DNA of 64,000 bases. It comes from Catajapyx aquilonaris. Its lineage: Eukaryota. The notes beneath the pieces were generated by a model. It saw only the letters and a program-made list of their open reading frames with translations, was not told the origin of the DNA and made no database searches. Numbering within the stretch: position 1 is the first letter of the stretch; every line of letters begins with the position of its first letter. Below are positions 3,001 to 60,390 of the stretch, piece after piece. The stretch lies in the NCBI GenBank assembly GCA_000934665.2, contig KZ537974.1:124001-188000 (forward strand), in the 5' to 3' direction. Both the position numbers and the translations under genes were made by a program.

Positions 3001-6000
3001 AAATATTTTAACGTCACTTTCGCTTTGCAAAGTTTACAGGTGAGGTAGCTCTAGTGGAATGAGGCTATGTCACATCCGGTCCAATGAAATTCAAGTTACG
3101 GCCCCAGATTTTACCAATCGCAACACGCATATGCTTTTGTCCCAATTACACCGGCGGATGAGCGTAATGAATGACTCCCCCCGCTCTGCCAGAGTCACCG
3201 ATGTGTAATTGCCAGGTAACGCCACCCCTGTTAGCAAGTTCCTTGAAAATACAAAACGGGCCCCAAGTTCTTGAGAAAGTTTCCGTATACCTTTGCCGAC
3301 TAGAGATTTCCGCATGACTAAATAGCTGAAAGGGTATGGCGGCTCGGGAACTGTACGTAATGGAGTTGGCGGCATAACGATCATGTTCTTGGGGCCGTTA
3401 GGCGCCTGTTTATGTAGAGCTGAACGGAAGCCAAGGTAAACAAGGTCAGAGTGCGGAACTGACGATATTAGCCTGCCACCAAAACCTCGATTTTCCTTCC
3501 GGAAAAGCCCGGAGACCTAGCGGCCGGAACTGTGGAGAAAGCCAACTCTGTGAAGCTTCTGATGCTGGCGGGGGTATACATAGAGAAGGTCCAGGTCTAA
3601 TTGCCGCAACCGTCGAAAGGAGAGGCGCAAATGTGGAGGGGACGACTTCCTTTGCACAGGAAGCCTTCCCAATTTGTTCAGTGTAGCCCCCAAATTATCC
3701 TGGGGCCAACAGAGGGATAAAGTTGGGGGACCCCTGGAATATAAGGAAAGTCAGGGGCGCAGTTTCCGCCTCGTCGTCGGATTCTCATTGATTAAAATCA
3801 ATTGTGTAGAAGAGCTATCAAAAATTTGGGACCGTCGGGTAATCGGATGAGTGAACGCCCAACTCCGACTCGCATTTTCGATTGACTTCCATTCCTCAGC
3901 ACAAAAGTTAAATTGGATGAGCCTGGCCGCATTTGCATGGAAGATGGCGAAGATGTGGACGGAGGAGAATTCGTTTCAAAAGGGAGGGTTAGTATAAAAG
4001 GACCCTGGACCTACCCGACTACGGACGATGTTGATTGTCGCTTTTGTCGGGATTCTGCCAGGAGCGTGTCTGCCTGGAAGAGTTACAGTGCTGGAGACAA
4101 AAGAAAATCCGGCGATATAACGAGTAGAATTATTATCGGGCAAGTTGTAAAGCATTACAGTATACTGCAGTTGGGTTTGTTCCGGAACAAACTACACTAG
4201 GAAAGTTTGTCAAGCAACTGTAAATCCAGTTAGGCTCACAATGGCTTCAAAACCTTTTTATCGGAATGTTGGTCTCCACTGCTGTCGGTATACCGCATTC
4301 TTGGCAAGTGACCGAAATTGAAATAAATGGCAATTATTTGGCACGCATATGAAATTTTACACTCGACATGCAGTAAATTGCTTTTAGCCCCAATGGCAGA
4401 CCGCACTTCAGCCGTGACACACCCATTAGGCTTTTCGTGCTCCTTCAAACGTCGTTACCAGATATTGTCACCAGACTCTCCACCACCTCATTAAACTTCC
4501 AACCCCTTGGTTTGAGAGATGGTTCAGAAGGTCATGCGGTTTTCCGTCTCGAGTTTGCTCGGTTTCCTCCCTGGACCACCGTCGACTTATTGGGTAAGTG
4601 CTATAGGCCTCAACCAAGTCGTGATCCATCCCCCCAATTTGTGGTGGCAGTATGGTAAGGGTGGACCGGTCCACTCGACCGCACCTCCCAAACATCTATC
4701 CATCCGTCTCACTTGGCCTGCTTCCACTTGGCTGGACCGCGATTCCTTCCCAAGGACTTCCGATTCTTTAAAAATGGTCTCTTTGTGCTGGCCACCCCCA
4801 GAAGAAGCCAATCGTGCGAAGGGCTCTTCTTTTTTTTTTCAACTGGTGAGACATGGAAGCTGGGTGGGGGAGAAATCTGGAATCTTCCTGCCGCCTTCAC
4901 CTACTCTGCAGGCCGAGTGCTATTTCCAATTTCTCCGTTTCCGTGGACAAAATCCCGGAGGAAATGGCCATACTCGGGTGGAGATGAGGGAGGAAATTGG
5001 TGTTAAGAAAAATGGGGGTGGGGGCTTGCCGGCACTTGGCCCCCTTGCTGCGCTGCATTTCTCCTCCTTTTGTTCCTCGAGAAGGACTAATCGAGCCACC
5101 ACCGGATTCCCTTTGACTTCGCTGGCCCGTGAAAAGAGGACGAATTCTTTGGGTTTGTTTCGACGGTTCATTAGCGGTCCAACCCGGGTGCTTTGTAACT
5201 CCATGGGGTGAAAGTTTTTGGGGTCAATATGTGCGATTGCACGCGTCAGGAAGTGTCAGCACTCTAGCGAGGCTGGCGGTGCATCTTAACCAACCAATTA
5301 GGCATTGAACTAAAGAAGAGCCAGATGATTATGGGAAGTTGAGTTAATGGCCCATTCCGCCGGTAATAATCCCACCTTTTATAAATCATCTAGTTTACCT
5401 TATGGTGTCAGATAAATCCGTGCTTCACAGGGAGATGACATATGAGGCGGTTTAATGAAACCGGATCACCTAAATTGAATTCTACGGGGCCGAATTATCG
5501 CTGGGAAGCGATCTTTGTAGCCAGTCTGTTTGAAGGGGTTCAATTACACAACCCTGAGGCTTATGAAGAGATGGGCTCACTGGAGAGAAGGATGGAAAAA
5601 ATTTTTGACTTGGAAAATCTCTCATGGGCCGGCCTACGCCTTGTGAATGCAAAGGGTAGAATAAGGGTTTGCCAGCCCGGATAATTAGTATTGAAGAGGG
5701 CTATTATTTATCCGATACCATAGAAGGTCTTTACGGAGGATAAAATAGAAGCAGGACCAGGTATTGTATTGAAAAGTGGTGCACGTTTGAATAGAGCCGG
5801 AATTACCTCTTTTGAGGTCTTTTGTGCGGACTAGCTCGGAGGTAAAATAATTGTCTTTTTTTTTCTTCTTTGAATTTTGAAGCGGTTTTTGTAGTCGTCA
5901 AGCCTCGCAAATGCTGCCGGTTGGCTGGCATCTGCAGTGCTATCGTGTAAAGTTTTTGGCGAGCACTTTTTGCCAGCGGTATTGAAACTTGTTGACTGTC

Positions 6001-39107: not shown

Positions 39108-40393
39108 AGAATGAATTCCCCTAGACGTTGAGAATGAATTCTCCCGGAATGGGACTAGTCTGGGATTAGTGCTTGGCAGACAAAAGCCCTGGGTTCCTGG
39201 GGCAGATAAACTGCGAGTCTTATACCCCCCCCGTACTAATGTGTACGTATGGGCTGCAGGTTCTAGGATTTGCTGTGCCTGTCCTCAAGTGCTGGACATA
39301 TTCCTCTTTTCCACTCCGGGGAATTGTCTCTCCGGATTGTTTACTCGGGTGTAGAGGAAAATGAAGCAAGCTTGGACCGTCCGAAGCTTGCTGACCACGA
39401 TGCATGCCACCTAGGCTCAATAATTAATTAGGAGTTTGGGAAGCTGGAGGTCTAGGAACTTCCGTATTTAACCGAACTCATTATTAATTAGCGTCGACTC
39501 TGAAAGGTTTTGGAAATGATGACATACCCTTTTTTACGTCGTGTAAGGGTTACTGTACTCTGAAAAAAAGTTTGTAACTAGGCCAAGGCATTACCTTAGC
39601 AATGAAATCCAATCAGTCCTGGTACTGGTAAACATTGAAGCGTACGGTGAGGACGCGGCTCACAATTTTTTATAGCTTCGGTTACAGAGTGAGTTGACGA
39701 TCGTCGCATTTGCCGCGCTCGCGAGCAAAAACCGGGCCGTAATTTTTGTCCGCAAAATCCATTAGGTAGGAAATACTGTGCATGCAAACAAAAACGTGAG
39801 CCACCGTCCTTGCCGCACATCCCCGCGGATTTTTTTGATCGTTGAATTATGCCGCGATGTTACTAGAGGAGTTGAGGAATAAGCGCAGCAGTTGCCGCTC
39901 GATTTTTGTATATATATATTTTAGCTGTTATTACGTGATGACCGTCCTGCTGTCATGGGGGGAAACGCCATTTGGGTTTTTCCCGAGCCTCCGGTGTACA
40001 TTGCACTTGCGAGCCTTGCTGGATCCTAATGAATGTACCACAATGGAAGCGACAGTAAAACACCACTGTATGCTAACGTTTTGTCCCAGTTCAAAACTGT
40101 CTTCACATCACTCCGAGCTCGTATTGACTTTTTTTTATATATAGTTAAACATAGCGAGCGGGGGACCCCCATATGTTTGGAATGGAGCTGGAAAAGCAAA
40201 AGCCATTTGTTTTCTAAGCCTCCATCATTTTTGGGGGGATGTGTTTTCTCTGTACAGTGCATTCAGCTGAGCTATTCCTGTACCCTCATTTGGTACCGTC
40301 TGTTTGACATTACAAGATGCCACAGGTTTTTTTGGGGGGGATATTCATCCGATTTACATGCATGTCTAACCATCTACTTCTCTCTTGTTCCAG

Positions 40394-40509
40394 CTTCCCG
40401 GATTCGATATGAGATCACAAGGGGTAACATAGGAGGAGCGTTCGCTGTGAAGAACATGACCGGGGCCATCTACGTGGCAGGGCCCCTCGACTACGAGACC
40501 AGGAAGAGA
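40394..40509 (+). CDS. CadN: CadN exon A, internal part of a cadherin repeat (SRIRYEITRGNIGGAFAVKNMTGAIYVAGPLDYETRKR)
   Basis: Acceptor ttctctcttgttccag| with upstream ctaac; donor AGA|gtgagt; phase 1 to 0; LDYE calcium motif. Confidence 0.93.
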
Positions 40510-43500
40510 GTGAGTACCATTCTTCCCTGAGAAATCATAATGTAACAGAAGCTGTTGTCGGGAAGGAGCCAAGAAGAAGAAAGACACGACTTTCAGTGCA
40601 GCAGAAAGGAAATGAAAGCAGCTGCCAACCCGGCGTCTATCTCAAGCCTCCACACAACTTGTGGGGAGCAATGACTCTAGGGGGAAGGAGAGACCTAGGT
40701 CGATACCAAATCCGGGGTCTCTTTGTCAGTCGGGCTTTTCCGACCTGTGACTTAGCCTGGTTTCGTCCGGGAGGCATAATGGAGTCATTGTGTCTCTAAT
40801 AAGCTCGATCTGGAATTATCTTTGTCGCTTGGAAGTAAGAATGGGAGTAACGTTCCTCCGCAGTCTGGCATCTTTTTTGTCTTGTATGGCACACACCTTC
40901 TGGAGGTTCATCAAGGCGGCATTGTCTGCTTGTCTGGCTATCTCTCGTCTGCGAGCCATTGTCGGCAGGCATTGTGGCTAAGTAGACATTATCGGGTGAG
41001 AAAGGCTGAAGGATGTGAGTAGGACTTTTGGTGCACCAGAAACTGCGAAACTTACTGAGGGAAAAATTTTCAGTTCCAAATTTGCCCGAAAAAAGCGAAC
41101 TGCTTGAAATTCATTTTTAATGCATGGACGCGTCAGTTTTGGCTCGAAACAAAAACATGCAGCCTCAGCCTGCCATGGCTTCAACACCCTTTCATCTCAT
41201 CGCTGAAAAATCACCATATTTTTTTAATGCGTACCGGTGGGAAAGCGCAGAGGCAGAAATTATTGAGGAGGTCATGGCCATTATCTGTTGCTGCCGAACA
41301 GCGCTTAGCTTTTGTGCCCCATATCTCCCGTCTATTCAGATTTTTTTTTGGCGTTTTGGGGGTGGGGGTGGGGGGGGGGGGTGGGAGAGTGTCGCACGTT
41401 AAATTGATGTTTGAGACCGAGTGCAGATATGGTTTTATGGTCGAAGCATGGTACCAGTGACTAATGAGAGATGCAGGCCGATATGATTGTATTGGAAATG
41501 AAGGCTGCAGGCGGTCAAAAAACTGCTGTTAGTTTAATTTTTTATTAAAGCGGATTACAGCGTATGATTGCTATACAATGCACCTGAATGGTAAATGTAT
41601 GTTTCTACATTTCAGACTGGTAGCATTATTTATACCTTCGAAAATCATGTTTGCTCTTCGCTTTCAGATTCAATGCATTTGAAAAACTCGGGGAGTTCAC
41701 TGCTCTTTTTATTCTTGTGGTCATGACGACGACCTGCATTCTATACAGCCTTTTCTACCCACCACCTTGTTACCAAGCCCTGACAAAAAAGCGGATGAAG
41801 TACAACTTGCAAGTAGCACTTGCCAATTTGAAATAATTATGTGCGCTTCCTTTTGCTTCTCTGGCTTCAGATCGTTGAAGTGTACTTAATCCGAGTGGGC
41901 TGAAGTAACTTTTATTGTTAGTTGAAAGTTGCTCCAGCAGTTCATATTTACTTGCCAGGAGATTTTTACTTAGAAAAAAAAAGTAGAAAGAGGGAGAGTT
42001 CGACGCAGATGAATCCCTAATGCTGGAAAATGGCATTACCCAACGAAAAGTTTTTCTCTGAAAAGTTGCTTGACCTAATTTCCAAGCTTTGAGAACCCAC
42101 CCCTTTTCGAGGGGTGGTTCCTTCCTCTCACATATATAAAAGGCGAGACTTTTATCCTCCGATTCCTTGTCCGGGCAAAAGTTGAGAGTTGGCCATCACA
42201 ACGAGATTCAGGCAGGCGGAAAAATGGAGTCTGCTTCTTCTCCTCTCTTTTCCTTCGAATGCGTAGCGATATATTTCTCTTTTTTTTCCCCAGGTCTCCT
42301 TCCATCTGTCTCTTTCCATGTGTCCTTCCAAGTTGGGGGACCAGACTTTCTTGACCCTGCCAAATGGGAAAAGGCAAGGTGTGGCAGGCGAAAAAGAAAG
42401 AGAGATATTGGATTTATAACTCCCTTTTTTGTGTGTGTGCAGTTCCCAAGACGGGGAAAGATCCCGATGAACCCGGTGAATTATATTCAGCGGAAGTTTC
42501 TCTCGCTTGTTAAGCAACACCGTCTGCAATTGAAATATGGGCCTAGAATTTTTCTTATTCTCTTGCTTCAGTCTGCGTCGCATTAGGCTTGGTGGAAGAT
42601 CCGCTTTTTTTATATCCCCAGATCTCTAGTGATTGAAACTGCTGAGTTGAGATCATGCGAATTCTGTGTTTAATTGCGATCTTTTTTTGCGAGCGAAATT
42701 TGGAGAGAAAAATGAGCATCTGTTCTACCAGGAAGAAAAGGGAGACGTTAAGATGTCGGATAGGCTAATAATGACGTGGATGGGGGAGCTAGAATCTGCA
42801 CTTTCTTCCGTGCTCCCTTCCTGCAGAAAGAGACTAATGGGATCCATATTGCTCCTCCTCTCCGGCTCTGAATCGAATGAAAGGAGCATCACTTATGAAA
42901 GGAGCCCCGGAATTTCTTTTACCGCCCTTTCCACCATTACTCTCTCTTTTTTTTTTTTACTTTCGTGGCTCTACCATTGCCAAGTGGATTTAGCTTATTT
43001 TGCAGGTATGGCCTGAAAACACCCATAGAAATGTCGAGTAGAATGCTGCAGTTTTTATAATAAAAAGTGTAGTGTACTCTAGCTGATATTAGCGTCATTT
43101 AGTTGAATTACTGGTGCAGTGGCAGGGCCAATTTAAAATTTTAATGAGTCCATGCATAAAATATTGGTTTGCTATAGATTGTTAGATTGGGTTACATGCC
43201 CGAGGTAATCTGGTAACAATGACGATCATGAAACGTTGATGAGAGCCGTGGGGCAGGAATTAAAGGCGATAGTAAGACATCGGTGACCTGAATTCCGTCA
43301 TATGACAGTCACTGCAGGTATTCGCGAAAGGGAGCCAATACATAATTTAGGTTGCGAAAGACGAACGTGTCTGGATTGTGTCTGCAGTATAAGTTACACG
43401 CTTCGGCACTTGCGCCCGTCGAGAGGTAAAGCCTCGAGCATAACCAAAGACAGGTTTGGAACATATTCGTGAAACCCCCCAGAAAAGCCCTTTTAGCCAT

Positions 43501-46459
43501 TGCGCGTCTGCGGGTGTAATGGATGAGTCCCCCAGGCCTAGGAGTCCAAACTTGTACACACCGCGAGTATTTATGGTAATAATTTTTCCTGGGTCAGGTA
43601 GGGGTAGAAACCAGTGGGGACTCTCATCATAATTAGCCCGAAAGCAATGCGGGCTCATCTGCATATTACACCGGCAGCTCCTCTGCTCAATTACCGCCGC
43701 TGGGAGAGGAGGGGGCAGTGGGTGGGGGGAAGGCAGCAGGGCGTATGTCAGCCTCTGTTGAGGAGGGATGGATTGTTGCCAAAACACACTCGGTTTCATT
43801 TTTGGGAGGATGGTGCTCTTGAGAAATCCAAGGGCTGCTCTGGTTCCATGCGTGCTGACATTGCGGTTGGAACTGGATGTATGAGGCTAGGCTAATTCAC
43901 TGCGTTGGATTATTACTGAGTAACCAGCATGGCTCTGATGGAATTGCGCTGTTGGGAAACAGGCACGTGAATGTCCGCAGGCCGTTTTTGGACCATCCTG
44001 CATTTTCTAAGGCAGAATATACGAGCTCATCCCGTTATAATAAAACAAAGTAGGATCCAATCACAGCTTTTGTCATTTGCAACGCACTCATTTCTGAAAT
44101 GGACTAGGTTTTAATGCAACTCGTACGGACCTAGTTCTTACGAGGCTATTAACAACACCGGAATTGTCAGCACACGTAAATCGAGTGGTGTCAAGTGTCG
44201 CCAACAATGCTCCTATCTTTACAAGGCAATTATCCAAGTTTTGCGCAGAAATGCTGAAGTAGGTTAAGCACCAGAGGCCTCGTTAGTTGCCCCTAAAATC
44301 CAACCAGAACAGATTGTCCTTATCTCCTCTTTTTTTTCAGGTCCTTCCTCTTTCTTTCTTTCTTCTTAATTCTTTATTGCCGAGGACTGATGGCAATGCG
44401 CGATTATCTGCGCCCGTTGTGCAGCCCTCCTCCTCGCCAATTGCTTTGGAATATTAAGGATGACTTAGTGCCTGCTTTATTAAATGAGGACCCGCGTGCC
44501 TTTTGTGAGTCCTGTAAAACTTTTCGGGAGGTGATTACCAAGAAGCAACTTCGCAGCCGGCAGCTCTTAGTCTAGTCATTTTAGAAAATGCGTTAGAATT
44601 GAGGCTCCGAGAATATATTTTTTAAAAGACCGGATCTTTGCAAGCAGGCCTTTTTTCTAGCAAAAAAGGGCTAATTTCTATATTTTTTGTGTGTGTCGTG
44701 CGATGGTGCTCTTTTCTCCGGCCTATTATGAGACACCGCCAAGCTGGGGACCAACAGCGGCGCCTTTGCCTGGGGGAATTTATGGCTCAAATTAGAGCTA
44801 ATTATTCCCGCTTGCCCCTAGGTGTAAGCTTCTCAACATGGTTTCAATGCGTGGGATTTTCCAAGGCGTTCCGAGGGAAAGGGACTTTTCTGCGGATTTT
44901 TAGCTAATACCCATGCACTGTACTGGTGGAATTGTCTTAGATATTGCTGGAGGATTTTGTGGGGCTCAATAATCTGTACAGTGCAATATGGTATGGGTAA
45001 TTATCTGGTAACTCACTTTGGCTAAACTGGAATTTTAAACGAAGGGGATTATTATTCACTTTGTAATTAAAAATGTAGGGACCCGTGTGATACGGTTTAT
45101 GTTCATCAGAATTGCATATGCTGATGGTGCTGCTCGGAATATACAGGGTGTTTCATAATCGACTGGCGAATGATTATCACGGGCGCCAACTGTGACAATG
45201 ATATATTTCTACAGTTTAGTATGCATTCGAATTATCGAGGTTTCCATTTCCATTCGGTTTCCCCAATCGGTCTGCACAAAATGGGCTTCCCACATCCCGT
45301 TTTTTTGTCTTAGAAACCTTACAAGTTCCAATCACAGGAAAGTAGAAGGGAAAAGAATTGAGACAACCTTGCGGAAAGTTCAACAAGTTCCCCAGCGGAA
45401 GTAAAGAAGAAGGGATGTGCAGTATAGGAAAGAGAAGAAGTAGAGAAAAAAAAAAGATGGCAAGAAAAGGTGCGACATTGACAGCGTTCGAATTGCATGA
45501 AGGAAAATTGATAGCTTTTGGAACCAGGCGAGTCTGTGCGTGCAACCCACTGCTAAAGGCAACAAACCGATCTCTAAATTGGCTTCCAGGAATAAATCCC
45601 AACTCGCCGGGTCTTGTCTGGCTTTGGGAATCCTCAGAGCAAAAACGCCATTGCAGTTGTTTCACTGCAGGAAGAGAGAGAAAGGAGCGAAAAAAAGAGT
45701 ATAAAATTGTTGCTGCAAGAAATAGTGCCTTGGTCGAAGATGCCAAGAATCGCAACTTTTTCCTGGTTAGTTTCCAAGACTTTGAGAGATTTCAGTGTGC
45801 ATCTCATTCGAGGCACGCAATAATAAGGGCGTTAAAGCCACGTTATGTCCTATCCAGTATATTGCCAAGGATCTGGACTGGTTGACGCTCTAGCCAGTAG
45901 GTCATCAGATTACTTGCGACAGAATCAATATTATTGAATCGTGTCAGGCTGGAATGCTTGATTGAACATAGTTGATGTGGTGGCCCTTGATCTGGCCCAA
46001 GATTGCACCGGAAGTGTGGGCGGAATGACCAATCAGCACGAAGAGCATGTTGCTGGACAATAATTTGTGTAGGGATAGGCTATATGATTATATTTAACGT
46101 GTAATAATTTTCCACAAATAGGTTTTATCCATGAAAAGTTTGCGCCTGATTTTCGCTGAAGCCGTTACTTTTCAAATAAGTAACTAATGTCGACACCTTC
46201 CTTTACGTTCCTAGCTGTTGAGCCTCTCTAATCACTATGGGACTGGATCCGTGTCTCCAAACGCTTTTCTAGCATCAGACTATGAGAAGAGGTAACGAAC
46301 GCGTCTAATCCGTCTTAGGAACTGGATTATACCCTATCAAGTAAATTTCAGGTCGCGAAGGTAGCCATTTTGTACTCATATGTTTCTAGAGACACTCCGG
46401 ATGATCCGATACCTTTCCCCAGAAGGGAAGAAGTGTTTGGGGGAGGGGGGGGGGGGGGG

Positions 46460-46503
46460 NNNNNNNNNNNNNNNNNNNNNNNNNNNNNNNNNNNNNNNNN
46501 NNN
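46460..46503. other. Assembly gap (44 N) after a poly-G run
   Basis: N run read directly; lies in intron A-B1. Confidence 0.98.
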
Positions 46504-47606
46504 CATTTTGGTGGAGGCCCCGAGGCAGCGCCCAGATGCGCCGATTGATTTCCTTTATATAAACGCCAACACAGGCCTTGCCCCCAAAACTCGACACAAG
46601 CTTCTCCTTCCGGACCGACCTTAACTCTCGCAAAATTCCACCTGCCAGTACATTTCGCGGAAATTACAACCCAGCAGCAGACCCACGGTTTTTATGTATT
46701 ACATGCAGATTGAATAGGAGCGACTCAACATCCGCACTAAATCTGCTGTCAAAAATGGCCCCTGCGAATATAAACGCTTTTTTTTTGGACTTTTTTTTTT
46801 GTAAAAAAAGGGGGGTGGTTCGTGCCCTCCAGACCAATCGATAGCTCAGTAATAAATTTTGGTACTTAAACAGCTTAATGCCAATATTTATGCGGCGTTT
46901 TATATCCATCCCGCTACTAACCGGGTCATTCAGGCTCCGGTACTTATCGAGTGGCAGCAAAGTTTGGACCAAATGTATAAATATTTATTGTGTACCTTTT
47001 TGCCACGGGCTCCAAGTACTGGAAAACGTAGTAAATGTGATTTTTTTTCTGGTGGACAATTTTTCCTGCAAGTAAAATCGATATTGTGATGATATATCGC
47101 GATATTCAGAATATTTTCGATATATTGAATATTGCGGAATTTTCCTCCTTTTTCTGTCGTTCCAGCAGGCTAAATAGGAAAATCCGTGAGCCCGTGTGCC
47201 TCCTTCCACTCGCATTACATTTACATTAGTACAGAGGCACTTGGCATGGATTGTCCGCTGCGAGCCAAATGTGATTTGTGTATCGGAGCCAAGTGAGGCT
47301 CTATTCCACTCCTCACGTCCCCAATTCCTCTAACGACCCTTCCCCATTCTATCGGGGCCTACCAGAGACACCGCCCAATCCCATTCTATAGTCCGCACCC
47401 GAAATGGACCGGACTTGCCAAAAAAAAAAAAAGAGGGACTGGAAGCACTGCACACAAGTGCGAACCGACCTGTAATTAATCATCACGCTGCAATTGGGCC
47501 CATTGCAAATGGGCGTGAGTTTTATGTCAATAGCCCGACGGGTCAATTTGGATTATTGACACTGTGGCGTGGCCAGAAATGTTTCAACTCCATGTTCCTC
47601 TGTCAG

Positions 47607-47771
47607 TATGAGCTTCGCCTGGTGGCATCGGACAACCTGAATGAGAACTTCACCACAGTTGTGATCCACGTGAAAGACGTGAATGACAATCCGCCAGTCT
47701 TCGACCGGCCTACATACGAGACACAGATCACCGAAGAGGATGACCGCAACCTGCCCAAGAGGGTCCTCCAG
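47607..47771 (+). CDS. CadN: CadN alternative exon B1 (exon-13-like; YELRLVASDNLNENF...DVNDNPPVF...KRVLQ, 55 aa)
   Basis: Acceptor ttcctctgtcag|; weak donor CAG|gtcact; 165 nt, phase 0-0; DxNDNxP inter-repeat linker. Confidence 0.92.
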
Positions 47772-47844
47772 GTCACTCGGATTTGATGGGTCAAATCGCT
47801 GACCTGTTGGAGGAATAAGCCAGCTGATGGCATCTTCCTTCAAC
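47764..47844 (+). promoter_or_regulatory. Candidate splicing-regulatory RNA hairpins over the exon B1 donor
   Basis: CAGGTCA/TGACCTG, GATTTGA/TCAAATC and TCCTC/GAGGA nest around the donor; an adjacent competing stem GTTGGAGGAA/TTCCTTCAAC follows. Function is inferred. Confidence 0.5.
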
Positions 47845-47985
47845 TGGACATGACCCTACTCTCTATGTGTTGTGTTGTGCTTTTATGTTGTGCATGCTTT
47901 TTTTTTATACTTATGTTTCAGGTATTTGCACGGCTAATCCCGCTTGATTTATTCTCGTTTTTTTGCCATTTTTGTTTTTTTATAG

Positions 47986-48150
47986 TATAACCTGACCCTA
48001 GTCGCTTCCGACAGCCTGAACGAAAACGAGACCACTATTATCATTTACGTGAACGACGTGAATGACATGCCGCCTGTTTTTAACCAATCCTTGTACACGA
48101 CCGAGATTGAGGAAGAGATTTCTGGTCCGTTTCGTCACAAGCTTTTGCAG
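47986..48150 (+). CDS. CadN: CadN alternative exon B2, paralogue of B1 (YNLTLVASDSLNENETTIIIYVNDVNDMPPVFNQSLYTTEIEEEISGPFRHKLLQ)
   Basis: Translated by hand; this frame is not in the ORF track. Acceptor tttttgtttttttatag|; donor CAG|gtatta; same 165 nt and phase 0-0 as B1; 30/55 identical residues ungapped; no stops. Confidence 0.9.
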
Positions 48151-48590
48151 GTATTATTGTTGTCACTGTACTTGGAGGAAAATTACTGCTATAGTAATTA
48201 AGGCAGATTCCATGTTAAAGTTATATAAGAGCAAAAGAATTATTTTTCCTCCATGTCTTCCTGGCCTATAGCTATGCTTTTATTTTGAAAACGTTAGTTG
48301 ACTGTTTTCCTTCCTTTTGCATGACACACGGCTCTGGAGACGGACTTTTCCTAAATCCTGACAATGTCAACACAAAGTAAGCCAGCAGTATCCTAGTAAA
48401 TGCGCTCCAGAGCCTATTTAACATTGATGACAAGTCGCATTTTCTTCGCAATCAGAGTGAAAGTCCTCTCAGATAAATGCGGCCATTTTTTCTTCCTCCT
48501 ACTCCTCCTCCTCTTTTTTTTATCTCTTCTCTCTCCAGAGATGGAAGCAATCTCTGTAAAAGCAGGCAGTTGACTGTCTTTTCTATGCAG

Positions 48591-48728
48591 GTGACTGCCA
48601 CCGATGGAGATAAGGACCGTCCTCAGAATATCGTCTACTTTCTGACGGGTCAAGGAATTGACCCCGAGAATCCGACCAATAGCAAGTTCGACATCAACAG
48701 AACCACCGGCGAAATCTACGTCCTCAAG
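48591..48728 (+). CDS. CadN: CadN exon C (VTATDGDKDRPQNIVYFLTGQG...TGEIYVLK)
   Basis: Acceptor cttttctatgcag|; donor AAG|gtatgt; 138 nt, phase 0-0; AxDxD motif. Confidence 0.94.
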
Positions 48729-49757
48729 GTATGTCCGAAACTTTTTTTTTCTATACACTTGAAAAAAAAGACAGGATTTTTTTTAAATGGCTGACCTAGT
48801 ACCTGGAGGTATTAGCTTACTATCCGGAATGTTCGAATTTGTCATGTGTGCTCATAGCGTGGAACCACGTTCCATTTGGGAAAGTAAATTTGATGTTGAC
48901 CAGCAGAGGTGAAGTTTGCCAATCCCATCCGTTTTATGCATGCAAACCCTCTTGTTTGTCCACCATAATGCAACTATTGTGTGTGAATACGGATTGCGAT
49001 TTTTCTGTGGGACCCTATAAAAAAAGAGGTCGTGAACCGCAACGTAATTGGCACATAAGTCATTATTCCAGCCGCACCGTTAACTGTTGCATCAGTTTCC
49101 CCATCCAAATAAAATGCATCGGACACTAATTCTCCCTGTTAAAGGTCGTAAACTTTTGCCAAGAGGAAGTCCGGGAAACCCAGGATCAAAAAAAGAGTTG
49201 GACAAATGTCAACGAAACTCGGGAGATTTGCAGCGGAAATAAATTGCCCGTGTAATTCACTGCTATTTGGACGAAACGGAAAAAAAAAGAAGGAGGGTCG
49301 TGCACGGTCCTTTCCCGGAGTTGCATGCCAACTTGACGGAGATGTAGTGTATCAGACGAAATTTTTGCAGGGAACGAATAAAAAACGGACATTTTTTTTT
49401 TCGCGCGTGTCTCAGTGGCTGGGTGTCCCCCATGGGTGTAGTGTTGAATGTGGTGGCCCGAGGCAAGTTGACACTAGGCTATTCATCACCGTGGGGGTGT
49501 AGGCGAGGGAATAGACTCCCATCAGTCGAATGGCTATGAGGAAGCCTATCGACAGGCCCTGGGGGATTTTTCATCCCGGTTCACTCAACATAGTAATAAC
49601 TATCGGATGGCCCCTGTTGTCACTTGTCATTCACAACTGGAAGGGCCTGTCTGCAAAGGGTGTTGCCACTCACCATCCACGGGGATTAACCTGGGGCGGA
49701 ACCCACCTCTTTTGCCTGATTCATCCCAAGTATTGAGGTCAAAATTTGAAATTCCAG

Positions 49758-49944
49758 CCTTTGGATCGAGACCAACCCAACGGCCGACCCCAATGGCGGT
49801 TCACCGTGTTCGCTCAAGACGAGGGCGGCGAAGGACTGGTTGGCTACGCAGACGTCCAGGTCAACCTGAAGGACATCAACGACAATGCGCCAGTCTTTCC
49901 TCAGGGAGTCTACCTCGGGAATGTCACCGAAAACGGCACATCAG
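49758..49944 (+). CDS. CadN: CadN exon D (PLDRDQPNGRPQWRFTVFAQDEGG...DINDNAPVF...TENGTS)
   Basis: Acceptor attccag|; donor TCAG|gtcagt; phase 0 to 1; LDRD and DINDNAP motifs. Confidence 0.94.
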
Positions 49945-51152
49945 GTCAGTGTTACATCAAAATTTGTGATGAAAATATTCACCAAGCTGTATAATTTTAT
50001 GCGCCTTACTGAATAACCTAAATTTAACCCGTATTTAGCAAAAGTAACTTAACCATCTCAGCTCTAAATTAACATTAATGAACAATTGTGCGTGTAAATT
50101 ATGCTGAAGATCTGGATGACTTTTCATTGGATGAGTGAACAGTGGTTTCACAGACGGGCCACCCTGAATCTGCATAATTCATGCAGAGAGCCAAGGTGTC
50201 CTTGTCGCTTGAAACCCCCTCTTGGCCCTATAGGGCCGCACCTCTTTAATAACCCTGCGCCAACAAAGGTTTTTTTTTTTTTTTGCCCCCCACCCCTCCC
50301 CCCTCGAACTGGAAGGACAACTACGAAACTGCTGCATAATGTATACCTCATAATCAGGAAGCCCTATTTCTGTTCGTAGCCGAATTCAACCGTGCAGCTG
50401 ATGGGCGAATATCATCCGGCTCACTTGCTTCACTCGCCTGCAACTGAAGATGTGCCGTTATTAAAATGCCACATCGTTTCATATTTCACGCTAAAAATCC
50501 TCGTAAAAAGGGCCGTACATGATTGTAATGAGTTTTGGAGCGGGTACAAAAACGGTGAAGCTCAGCTCTAAATGCGACTCACTGTTTGATTACGCTCGAC
50601 TTTATTTTTTTAAAAAAAATTGTGTAATTTTTGTGCGTGCCGGGTTTTTACTGAAAACGGTGGGGTGATGAAGTGGCAAAGCGTGAGAGCGCATTTGGGG
50701 ACCGAACTTTAGGGAAATCAGATCCGATTCGGCGGAGTGTCATCCCAGCAGCCTTTTCCCCGCACCATTTCGGGATGATTCAACCCCTAGTCTATTTTTC
50801 AGACCAGTTTTTTTTTTTATCCGGTGCAAAAATACGGGTTAGGCGCGTCGGATGGTAATAACTCCGAGTCGTCAATTAGAGAGGCTGGTACGCAGATGCG
50901 GCTGCAATTTGCGAGTCGGCGCGTGTCCTGCGGCTCCAAAGATTGCGGATATAATTTGTGGGATGGCGGACAGGGCGAATTAATCAAGGATCTCGGTTTT
51001 TTTTATGTATATATTTCAAGCTCGTCCAATTGATCTGCGCTTCGCTTACAGATCCTCGTTAAATTCAAGCGGCGCCAACATGTGGTCTGCTCACAAATCG
51101 GACCTATACTAGAACCGGATAGAGTGTGTATAAATATAATTTTTGTTTACAG

Positions 51153-52831
51153 GTATGGTGGTGATGACGATGACGGCTGTGGACTATGATGACCCCAACG
51201 AGGGAACCAATGCTCGTCTGACTTATTCGATTGAGAAGAATGTGATTGATGAGGAGCAGGGCAGGCCGATCTTTGAGATCGAGCCGGAGACGGGTGTGAT
51301 CAAGACCGCGGTGTGTTGCTTGGACCGGGAGAAGACACCGGATTATTCGATACAAGTGGTGGCAATGGACGGAGGGGGGTTGAAAGGGACAGGGACAGCC
51401 TCTATACGAGTGAAAGATATCAATGATATGCCGCCGCAGTTCACGAAGGACGAGTGGTACACCGAGGTTGATGAGACTGACGGGACCAATCTGCCGGACA
51501 TGCCCATCCTGACGGTGACGGTGCACGATGAGGATGAGACCAACAAGTTCCACTACAAGGTGATCGAGAACAGCGGGTACGGAGCGGACAAGTTCACTAT
51601 GGTCAGGAACAACGATGGTACAGGCTCGCTCAAGATCGTGCAGCCCCTGGACTTTGAGGATCCGCTGCAGAGCCAAGGCTTCCGGTTCCGAATCCAGGTC
51701 AACGACAAGGGAGAGGACAATGACAACGACAAGTACCACGTGGCGTACGCTTGGGTAAGGGTGACCCTGAGGGACATCAACGACAACAAGCCACAGTTTG
51801 AACGGCCCAACATCGAAGTGTCCGTGTACGAGAACGCAGAGGTTGGGAAGAGCCTGGAGACATTCAAGGCGACTGATCCGGACCAGGGCGGGAAGAGCAA
51901 GGTGTCGTACGCGATAGACCGCACGTCGGACAGGAAGCGACAGTTCTCGATCAATCAGGACGGTACTGTCAGCATCCAGAGGAGCCTGGACAGAGAGGAG
52001 ACCCCGCGTCACCAGGTGAAGATCCTGGCCATCGACGACGGCGTCCCACCCAAGACGGCCACTGCCACGCTCACAGTCATAGTGCAAGACATAAACGACA
52101 ATGCGCCCACGTTCCTGAAAGACTACCGTCCGGTCCTGCCCGAACACGTGCCGCCTAGGAAAGTGGTGGAAGTGCTGGCCACCGACGACGACGACCGGTC
52201 CAAAGGCAACGGACCTCCGTTCACCTTCAGGATGGACCCCAATGCGGACGACATCATACGCGCGTCCTTCAAAGTGGAGCACGATCCGAAGGGCGCCAAC
52301 GGAGACGGAATGGCCATCGTGTCGTCGTTGCGGTCGTTTGATCGCGAGCAGCAGAAGGAGTACCTGGTTCCCATTGTGATAAAAGACTCCGGAAATCCAG
52401 CCATGTCCGGCACCAGCACGTTGACGGTCATCATCGGAGACGTGAACGACAACAAGATGCAGCCAGGATCCAAGGAGATATTTGTGTACAACTACATGGG
52501 ACAGGCTCCTGACACCGAGATCGGTCGCGTGTACGTGTACGACTTGGACGACTGGGATCTTCCAGACAAGAAGTTCTACTGGGATGGACCAGACCACCCG
52601 TACTTCCGGTTAGATGAGGACACTGGAATGATCACGATGAAGCGGGGCACTAGAGAAGGGCGGTACCACTTGCGGTTCAAAGTGTACGACCGGAAGCACA
52701 CCCAGACGGACGTGCCGGCCAATGTCACGGTCTTGGTGAAGGAAATACCTTACGATGCTGTGATGAACTCCGGGTCAGTCAGGATAGCTGGGCTTACAGA
52801 CGAGGACTTTATCCGGATATGGGACTACAGG
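51153..52831 (+). CDS. CadN: CadN exon E, 1679 nt: the last cadherin repeats leading into the non-chordate classical cadherin domain
   Basis: Inside ORF 51143..52906; acceptor ttttgtttacag|; donor AGG|gtgagt; phase 1 to 0; repeated LDRE/LDFE/FDRE, DINDxxP and AxDxD motifs. Confidence 0.97.
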
Positions 52832-57355: not shown

Positions 57356-57597
57356 GTGCGGCGAAGGCAAGGTGGTGACACCTGATGGGAAGGGCTGCAT
57401 GGATAAGAATGAGTGCCTTGAGAACCCGTGCCTGAACGGAGGCACATGCATCAACCAAGATCCACGCTACCGCTACCAGTGCATCTGCCCAGAGGGATTC
57501 TGGGGGGAGAACTGCGAGCTGGTGCAGGAGGGGCAGATACTCAGGCTTAGCATGGGCGCCCTGGCTGCCATTCTTGTTTGTCTACTCATCATACTCA
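57356..57597 (+). CDS. CadN: CadN alternative exon H1 (exon-18-like): Ca-binding EGF plus N-terminal part of the TM helix (CGEGKVVTPDGKGCMDKNEC...MGALAAILVCLLIIL)
   Basis: Branch point gactaac 57331-57337; acceptor tgtag|; donor A|gtgagt; 242 nt, phase 2 to 1; close to the fly reference isoform as recalled. Confidence 0.93.
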
Positions 57598-57820: not shown

Positions 57821-58065
57821 GTGCCCACCAGGTCGCACGAAGCAGCTTGACAAGTGCATTGACATCGACGAATGTGCCTGGATCATCACTCCATGTCAGA
57901 ATGATGCTGTTTGCATCAACATTGATGGTTATGAGATGTACCGTTGTGATTGTCTGCCTGGATATTCAGGGAAGGATTGCGAAGTGGAAGTGCTGCCATC
58001 TGCAACCATCACTACCTCAGCCGAGTTCCTCCTCACCATATGCATTTGCGTTTTTGTTCTCCTGA
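57821..58065 (+). CDS. CadN: CadN alternative exon H2: divergent EGF plus alternative TM start (CPPGRTKQLDKCIDIDEC...AEFLLTICICVFVLL)
   Basis: Acceptor aattcag|; donor A|gtaaat; 245 nt; same phase 2 to 1 as H1; the same eight EGF-region cysteines followed by a hydrophobic segment; no stops. Confidence 0.88.
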
Positions 58066-60283: not shown

Positions 60284-60390
60284 GTACAGACGACAATGAG
60301 CAGGACTACGATTACTTGAATGGTTGGGGCCCTCGGTTCAGCAAATTGGCCGACATGTACCATGGAGAGAGTGAAGAGGAAGATCAGTAA
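60284..60390 (+). CDS. CadN: CadN terminal coding exon K ([35 protein letters not shown])
   Basis: Not in the ORF track. Long pyrimidine tract then caattag|; classical cadherin terminal motif DYLxxWGPRFxKLADMY; TAA at 60388-60390. Confidence 0.94.

Follow-up and report, generated by a model that had tools for sequence, protein, structure and literature searches.

The 64,000-nt stretch of the Catajapyx aquilonaris contig KZ537974.1 analyzed here (the window) carries, on its forward strand, the exons of a cadherin gene. The gene is identified by a large cadherin-repeat exon (51149..52831, approximate limits), whose best matches over about 51152-52825, among 1285 proteins matched out of 7892 candidates, are insect neural-cadherins at up to 91% identity over 558 aa. 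Tribolium CadN is colinear with the window from the upstream constitutive exon A (40394..40509; 116 nt, ending in phase 0 before the consensus donor GTGAGT) to the last coding exon near 60390, and the colinear exons run through the laminin-G/EGF, transmembrane and cytoplasmic parts. On these grounds the host gene is the orthologue of the type III neural cadherin CadN. No earlier CadN exon is found in 1-40393 at an identity of at least 45%. The window opens inside an intron of more than 40 kb, and the same 1-40393 region holds only one frame of at least 200 aa (4516-5211), with no protein recognizable by eye. In a quick tree of the large exon (35 rows), the window falls beside Collembola and outside the winged insects, with an SH-aLRT of 92 that lies below the starred threshold; this makes an early-branching hexapod likely.

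An intron of 7097 nt separates exon A from a pair of short exons, B1 (47607..47771) and B2 (47986..48150), which enclose a 214-nt intron of 43% U (47772..47985) and are followed by the constitutive exons C (48591..48728; 138 nt, phase 0-0) and D (49758..49944; 187 nt). The initial annotation had described B1 and B2 as two 165-nt, phase 0-0 exons 214 nt apart with 30 of 55 residues identical, each running from the end of one cadherin repeat through the Ca-binding linker into the start of the next. Its coordinates are exact and its placement of the exons across the repeat boundary holds: the linker motif is present in both, as DxNDNPPxF in B1 and DxNDMPPxF in B2, and B1 aligns across the inter-repeat linker of solved cadherins. 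Both exons are preceded by AG, followed by GT and open in frame without a stop codon; B1 has the pyrimidine-poorer acceptor and the non-consensus donor GTCACT, B2 a strong U-rich acceptor and the likewise non-consensus donor GTATTA. Aligned without gaps, they agree at 101 of 165 nt and, by codon position, at 35, 42 and 24 of the 55 first, second and third positions, which is the pattern expected of a diverged coding sequence. This likeness is not due to chance, since the runner-up ungapped 55-residue match to B1, in six frames of the whole window, reaches only 16/55 and belongs to another cadherin repeat. The further statement that B2 is invisible in the ORF track holds for a track built on start codons, which would miss B2 because the TAG of its acceptor stops the frame and no Met occurs before residue 28, but not for stop-to-stop frames, among which B2 is visible as one of 71 aa. 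Neither exon is detected alone by Pfam, as expected for half-repeats; no tRNA is found in the window and no Rfam match in 40000-52000. Within the A-B1 intron, a 44-base N gap beside a G run (46460-46503) may hide a small element.

The same gene holds a second, ME-18-like pair, which is a choice separate from B1/B2: an 18a-like exon (57356..57597; 242 nt) encoding an EGF domain and the start of the transmembrane helix and, 223 nt further on, an 18b-like exon (57821..58065; 245 nt) with 27 identities to it. Their lengths are not multiples of three, and therefore the reading frame punishes double inclusion or skipping there. The ME-7 pair of the published gene would be situated upstream of the window.

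Almost certainly, B1 and B2 are ME-13a and ME-13b of CadN, the arthropod type III neural cadherin, a tandem-duplicated pair spliced in a mutually exclusive manner. Each mRNA would include one of the two between A and C and so exchange the final strands of one cadherin repeat, the Ca-binding linker and the opening strand of the next repeat. ME-13a and ME-13b are 54-55-aa exons with a DxNDNxPxF motif, known from fly, beetle and Daphnia through a survey of five insects plus Daphnia, kept from Drosophila to Daphnia and verified by RT-PCR (PMC2655722); CadN is also listed elsewhere as a known mutually exclusive case (PMC3245913, PMC9013439). The Catajapyx pair shares with the published one the gene, the position, the exon length, the linker motif and the ME-18 pair that comes after, and its two members are 55% identical, as against 47% for fly 13a/13b. 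The initial annotation had likened the two pairs in architecture and suggested a phylogeny with insect exons 13a/13b; the likeness goes further than architecture, to orthology, with the a and b exons clustering by type across species. In the ME-13 exon tree, B1 belongs to a single clade of all 33 a-type rows, chelicerates included (99/95), and B2 lies among the hexapod b exons with a support of 93/90, below the starred threshold; the b rows overall are not resolved as one clade in this midpoint-rooted tree. The residue after ND is L, M or I in 35/35 b rows and in 0/33 a rows, and B2, which is 73% identical to the Timema b exon, has M. Taken alone, B1 is nearest to a centipede sequence (54/55), its 55 conserved columns holding little signal. 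A region search with a b-type exon recovers 16 proteins out of 36 candidates, from insects, springtails and crustaceans.

The equation of B1 with 13a follows from the Hymenoptera, whose proteins have the B1 type only (45-49/55 matching), together with Apis, in which the 13a-like exon alone is retained (PMC2655722). The labels a and b are in this sense indirect, resting on gene order and on Hymenoptera with a 13a-like exon only, the fly match present being CadN2. In Drosophila and Tribolium, 13a is neural and 13b early mesodermal, and the two isoforms are interchangeable in rescue (PMC2655722); by analogy with fly and beetle, neural expression would be expected of B1 and early-mesodermal expression of B2. 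Such an exon pair has been published before, and B1/B2 adds one more arthropod to a known system—a further lineage relative to the published ME-13 set, and a hexapod apparently outside the winged insects. Exonic motifs have been proposed in fly 13b only, GATGCAG among them (PMC3303723), and GATGCAG is absent from the end of B2. Elsewhere in the family, the spider proteins P0072 and P0118 have a single b-like segment and fly CadN2 (P0061-P0064) an a-like one; the spider and fly CadN2 gene duplicates may each have fixed one isoform.

A metagenome scan yielded 54 related loci out of 388 pattern matches, and the 19 pattern matches on viral contigs include no relative. L038-L054 were excluded as weak matches to other cadherins; among L001-L037, both exons are present in 18 loci, most of the others ending too early. 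The statistics below are based on the window plus 13 loci (14 loci), with L002 and L003 dropped as near-identical to L001, L014 and L018 as having the same exons as L010, and L032 as having an a-exon edge that could not be resolved; 7/14 loci are copepod-like, so the rows are not independent. In all 14, the b exon is 165 or 162 nt long with AG/GT flanks, and the a-b intron measures 134-2473 nt. When four a-b introns were aligned, those of L001-L003 were near-identical and that of L004 not reliably alignable. A dN/dS check on the B2-type exon, also suggested by the initial annotation, was run in the relatives: dN lies well below dS (0.083 vs 0.385 for L001/L004, 0.213 vs 0.617 for L001/L008 and 0.31 vs 1.55 for L001/L024). 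The b exon is under purifying selection in relatives, in pairs with measurable dS, many deeper pairs being saturated. It evolves faster than the a exon (dN 0.21 vs 0.06 to L010).

Four loci, L026-L029, run from a to C without b. The ant-like L027-L029 are near-identical and count as effectively one observation; their a-C intron is 123 nt long and contains no GCATG. In L026, a continues straight into C, as in a spliced transcript or after intron loss. Partial matches to the a exon, covering residues 1-24, 22-55 or 25-55, occur in L031, L032, L033, L034 and L036, and in L034 the 55 a-exon residues are spread over 235 nt. The partial matches suggest that some lineages have an extra intron within exon 13a, in which case the alternative unit would consist of two exons.

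Compared with the five insects and Daphnia of the published set, the pair extends here to the chelicerates. L022, L023 and L030 group with named mite proteins, and models from Sarcoptes, Oppiella and Cordylochernes hold both exons; as read from these models, the pair is present in mites and a pseudoscorpion too. Chelicerate and mandibulate b exons share diagnostic residues, T at position 4 being found in 9/9 chelicerate b, 22/26 mandibulate b and 0/33 a rows. An AU test on 29 rows does not reject a tree with chelicerate a and b forced together (p-AU 0.062), and the exon tree is without a non-arthropod root; a single pan-arthropod origin of the duplication is therefore likely, not proven. A search of the literature on alternative CadN exons in chelicerates, including passages of PMC5473995, found no report.

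How the two exons are used can be gauged from gene models of relatives. Among 57 RefSeq isoform models, drawn from 98 members listed across 10 clusters, at most 15 from each, and constituting pipeline output, not junction counts, 36 contain a only and 16 b only, none contains both or neither, and five are without anchors; of the other 41 listed members, 34 are without anchors, 6 contain a alone and 1 contains b alone. Separate a and b isoform models occur within single species, among them Folsomia, Halyomorpha, Coccinella, Lutzomyia and the mite Brevipalpus, and b-only isoform models are found in Folsomia, Halyomorpha, beetles, a sand fly and mites. With 52/52 placeable RefSeq models single-exon, the relatives support, by analogy, the use of one exon per mRNA in Catajapyx, and in published work nested RT-PCR gave the predicted exclusive combinations (Hsu et al., PMC2655722). 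Across a wider set of 120 homologues, the A-to-C span consists of one 50-60-aa segment in 67, two in nine and an irregular arrangement in four, 40 being without an anchor. The nine both-exon models all fall outside the RefSeq isoform set, and one more Tribolium model, beyond these nine, also holds both exons in tandem. Their linkers are spaced 55 aa apart, against 100-119 in neighbouring repeats, and we read them as probable gene-prediction artefacts: because the pair is neutral to the frame, prediction programs appear to join its two exons into a single erroneous protein.

The initial annotation had further argued that NMD cannot enforce the exclusivity. This stands, and it extends to the relatives: B1, B2 and the exons in all 13 related loci are multiples of three (165 or 162 nt), and therefore transcripts with both exons or with neither are beyond the reach of NMD. 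Exclusive pairs that leave the frame intact are nothing unusual: among 629 human clusters, 377 (60%) fail to divide by three, which leaves about 40% frame-neutral (PMC5740500). Each exon corresponds to half a repeat, and therefore mis-spliced products probably misfold; a filter acting on the protein may be a second safeguard behind the control of splicing.

We scored splice-site strength by base composition and donor consensus. The first exon (a) has the weaker acceptor, and both alternative donors are non-consensus: U content is 0.54 at the b acceptor vs 0.34 at the a acceptor, with b higher in 11/13 loci (Wilcoxon p=0.002), and GTRAG donors are found at 0/14 a and 1/14 b exons, as against 8/9 for A and 3/5 for C. 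The exonic AG of the alternative donors can offset a missing +5 G.

The intronic word that stands out is (U)GCAUG, the RBFOX site (PMC3585155). GCATG ranks first of 1024 5-mers in the a-b introns (16 observed vs 3.1 expected, in 9/14 loci) and again in the b-C introns (11 vs 1.8, in 7/11 loci). In 35 control gaps, it ranks 22 (15 vs 8.0), and nine A-a introns, the long ones scored on their first and last 300 nt, contain none. The word was first spotted in the window, before the test; the counts without the window are 15 vs 2.9 (a-b) and 10 vs 1.6 (b-C). Its density is 4.3 per kb, against 1.7 per kb for the remaining introns of these loci, an approximately 2.5-fold difference (p=0.003-0.006), and control introns of the same gene are mildly enriched too (11 vs 6.1 and 4 vs 1.9). 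GCATG occurs in hexapod, branchiopod-like, copepod-like and mite-like loci, not in all loci and at no fixed position. With intron ends scored to 300 nt, it is missing from 5/14 a-b and 4/11 b-C introns, including both introns of L022 and L031 and the one intron scored in L009. The single copies in the window's own two introns do not stand out, GCATG occurring at 1.16 per kb over the window as a whole. UGUU/UUGU reach 36.8 per kb in the a-b introns vs 8-15, which is not above the dinucleotide expectation (140 vs 128), and YGCY, YCAY, UCUU/CUCU and ACUAA, the words of other splicing factors, show no enrichment in a-b or b-C introns. Near another alternative exon, four GCATG are clustered in the intron after an ME-7-type exon (L006:1178-1255), and three further ME-7-adjacent gaps have none in their scored ends.

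Several of these elements can be placed in the window. The B1-B2 intron contains a UG-rich tract (47866..47896) that ends in UGCAUG (47891-47896), candidate CELF-type and RBFOX-type elements, and the B2-C intron has another UGCAUG (48318..48323), again a candidate RBFOX-type element. A branch-point-like CTAAT (47932..47938) has its A at position -49 relative to the B2 acceptor, a distance of 166 nt from the B1 donor. A pyrimidine tract followed by a back-to-back CAG/GT (47916-47927), 64 nt before B2, is a possible cryptic acceptor or recursive site; as a cryptic acceptor it would give a frameshifting extension of B2. Recursive splicing through CAG/GT was rejected, with only 2/13 a-b introns scoring (window and L001) in a count that left out the 2473-nt L010 intron, and control introns doing so at a similar rate.

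The likeliest route to exclusivity is through unequal splice sites combined with one protein-bound switch, a mechanism for which we find the case evenly poised. In the default state, with no regulator, exon A would join the strong U-rich B2 acceptor and B1 would be skipped, its acceptor and donor being poor. In the regulated state, an RBFOX-family protein on GCAUG and a tissue-restricted partner on the U/UG-rich tract, for which our guess is a CELF or ELAV-type protein, would bind between the exons; this complex on the inter-exon intron would mask the B2 acceptor and strengthen the B1 donor, so that a would be chosen in neurons. The GCAUG after B2 would help B1 join C. The B1 donor would work only while the B2 acceptor is covered, keeping B1-B2 joining rare, and leaked both-or-neither mRNAs would be in frame but code for half a repeat more or less than normal, their products probably being lost at protein folding. 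The binding, the direction of the switch, the identity of the partner, the tissue pattern and the misfolding are what we infer in this scheme. RBFOX as a rule activates exons upstream of its site and represses those downstream, and the GCAUG after b could equally activate b. Taken as a whole, identity together with mechanism, this is the best explanation of the locus, and we lean slightly towards accepting it.

Searches of the literature, subscription journals and most supplementary tables aside, turned up no link of CadN exon 13 to Rbfox or to another named regulator; such a link may exist in knockdown datasets. Low synonymous rates in the pair have been taken as a sign of cis-elements, the available text of that study leaving the enforcing mechanism unnamed (PMC2655722), and in the available part of a preprint on Muscleblind and Dscam2 (10.1101/297101) CadN appears merely as an RNAi stock. 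The closest parallel is the 7a/7b pair of the worm unc-32, a neuronal switch run by RBFOX (ASD-1/FOX-1) and CELF (UNC-75), in which the second exon is followed by a UGCAUG, a UG-rich element lies between 7a and 7b, and the splice sites of the first exon are weak (PMC3585155). B1/B2 is likewise a two-exon pair with weak first-exon sites and, by analogy, a neuronal first exon; the candidate UGCAUG after its second exon (48318) matches that of unc-32, and 11 of the 12 letters of the unc-32 UG element recur at 47868, the sole copy in the window. Between its exons the window has this candidate UG-rich element; in the relatives it is not kept letter for letter, and such words, though dense, do not exceed the dinucleotide expectation. 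Unlike unc-32, CadN is an unrelated gene, so the likeness would be convergent; GCAUG here also lies between the exons, and the arrangement is known from sequence alone. More tentatively, the 13a/13b switch may have arisen once, before the chelicerate/mandibulate split, and have been run since by an RBFOX-centred intronic code, which strikes us as possible rather than probable. Such a code would comprise GCAUG both before and after the second exon, a long tract rich in U and weak donors, its motifs shifting in position and persisting in number. The chelicerate/mandibulate split lies over 500 million years back.

The acceptor regions raise the alternative of a distal branch point or steric hindrance, by which the b branch point, upstream of a long U tract, would be too near the a donor for a-b joining; we consider this unlikely. 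Among human clusters, steric hindrance is possible in 57 of 629 (PMC5740500). In the loci studied here, YTRAY within -63..-14 is present at 3/14 b acceptors vs 8/13 a and 11/11 C acceptors (19/24 together; p=0.001), and A is scarce in the b tracts (0.15 vs 0.30-0.34). A good branch consensus lies in the window 31 nt from the B1 donor, and in the short introns of L009, L031 and L006 the last TRAY lies 52, 11 and 5 nt from the donor. However, the looser YTNAY pattern is not depleted at b acceptors (11/14), and therefore the YTRAY signal may be mere base composition. The a-b introns also range up to 2473 nt from a minimum of 134, L001, L004, L005, L010 and L030 are without a branch-like word within 50 nt of the donor, and a sequence scan of the window gives proximal branch candidates at -49 and -39, the latter 176 nt from the B1 donor. 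For the window itself, steric hindrance is improbable, and it is the relatives that keep the distal branch point alive as an explanation. In 11/14 loci, the b acceptor has a long, A-poor U tract and no strict branch consensus close by; that of L005 has instead an A/C-rich stretch, with 243 nt free of AG.

The half-repeat nature of the exons raises another possibility, to which we give slightly less credence: exclusivity might be loose at the RNA level, with independent tissue cues for the two exons, some both-or-neither mRNA and protein quality control removing the half-repeat products. Linkers only 55 aa apart, as in the both-exon models, should not fold as cadherin repeats, folding constraints have been invoked for such clusters (PMC5740500), and both-exon database models do exist. 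Yet both or neither is the state of 0/52 placeable RefSeq models, and the nested RT-PCR of Hsu et al. gave exclusive combinations (PMC2655722).

A little less probable again is the looping out of one exon by competing RNA pairings of the docking site/selector kind seen in Dscam1 exon 6. Both systems concern a neuronal adhesion molecule of arthropods whose alternative exons are tandem duplicates (PMC3245913); B1/B2 differs in comprising two exons only and in that conserved pairing was not found. An 11-bp helix between 47535-47545 and 47800-47810 is possible in the window and would loop out B1, but it is equalled by 3/30 and 3/40 shuffles and is absent from the relatives. The 751-nt region folds at z=-2.25, with 1/20 shuffles as good, whereas across loci the mean z is -0.27 for pairing of the A-a with the a-b intron (n=9) and -0.57 for that of the a-b with the b-C intron (n=11), with one outlier, L022. 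Around exon a, pairing outscores every one of 40 shuffles in 3/18 loci; the positions are unrelated, and L027, one of the three loci, is without the b exon. Conserved competing helices flanking the exons were not found among these relatives, which are too distant to reveal a lineage-restricted helix.

That B2 is a dead duplicate, never spliced in Catajapyx aquilonaris, is very improbable: b does outpace a in dN, and b is lost in the ant-like loci and in Apis (PMC2655722), but the B2 frame and splice sites are intact, its length is exactly 165 nt, its identity to Timema b and its b-diagnostic residues are retained, and in relatives b has a dN well below dS and b-only isoform models.

Returning to orthology with ME-13a/13b and a protein-bound switch, it is the wider phylogenetic range and the RBFOX-motif lead that exceed routine annotation. 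The former would date the pair to the root of the extant arthropods. The GCAUG signal offers a specific and cheap test, namely of GCAUG and Rbfox1 in the fly CadN introns 13a-13b and 13b-14. Hsu et al. left an open puzzle: as proteins, the two isoforms seem able to replace one another, and still the switch between tissues has persisted over hundreds of millions of years. The RBFOX code, if true, would repeat by convergence the logic of unc-32 in the worm and would supply the regulator so far missing from the neural/mesodermal switch of N-cadherin.
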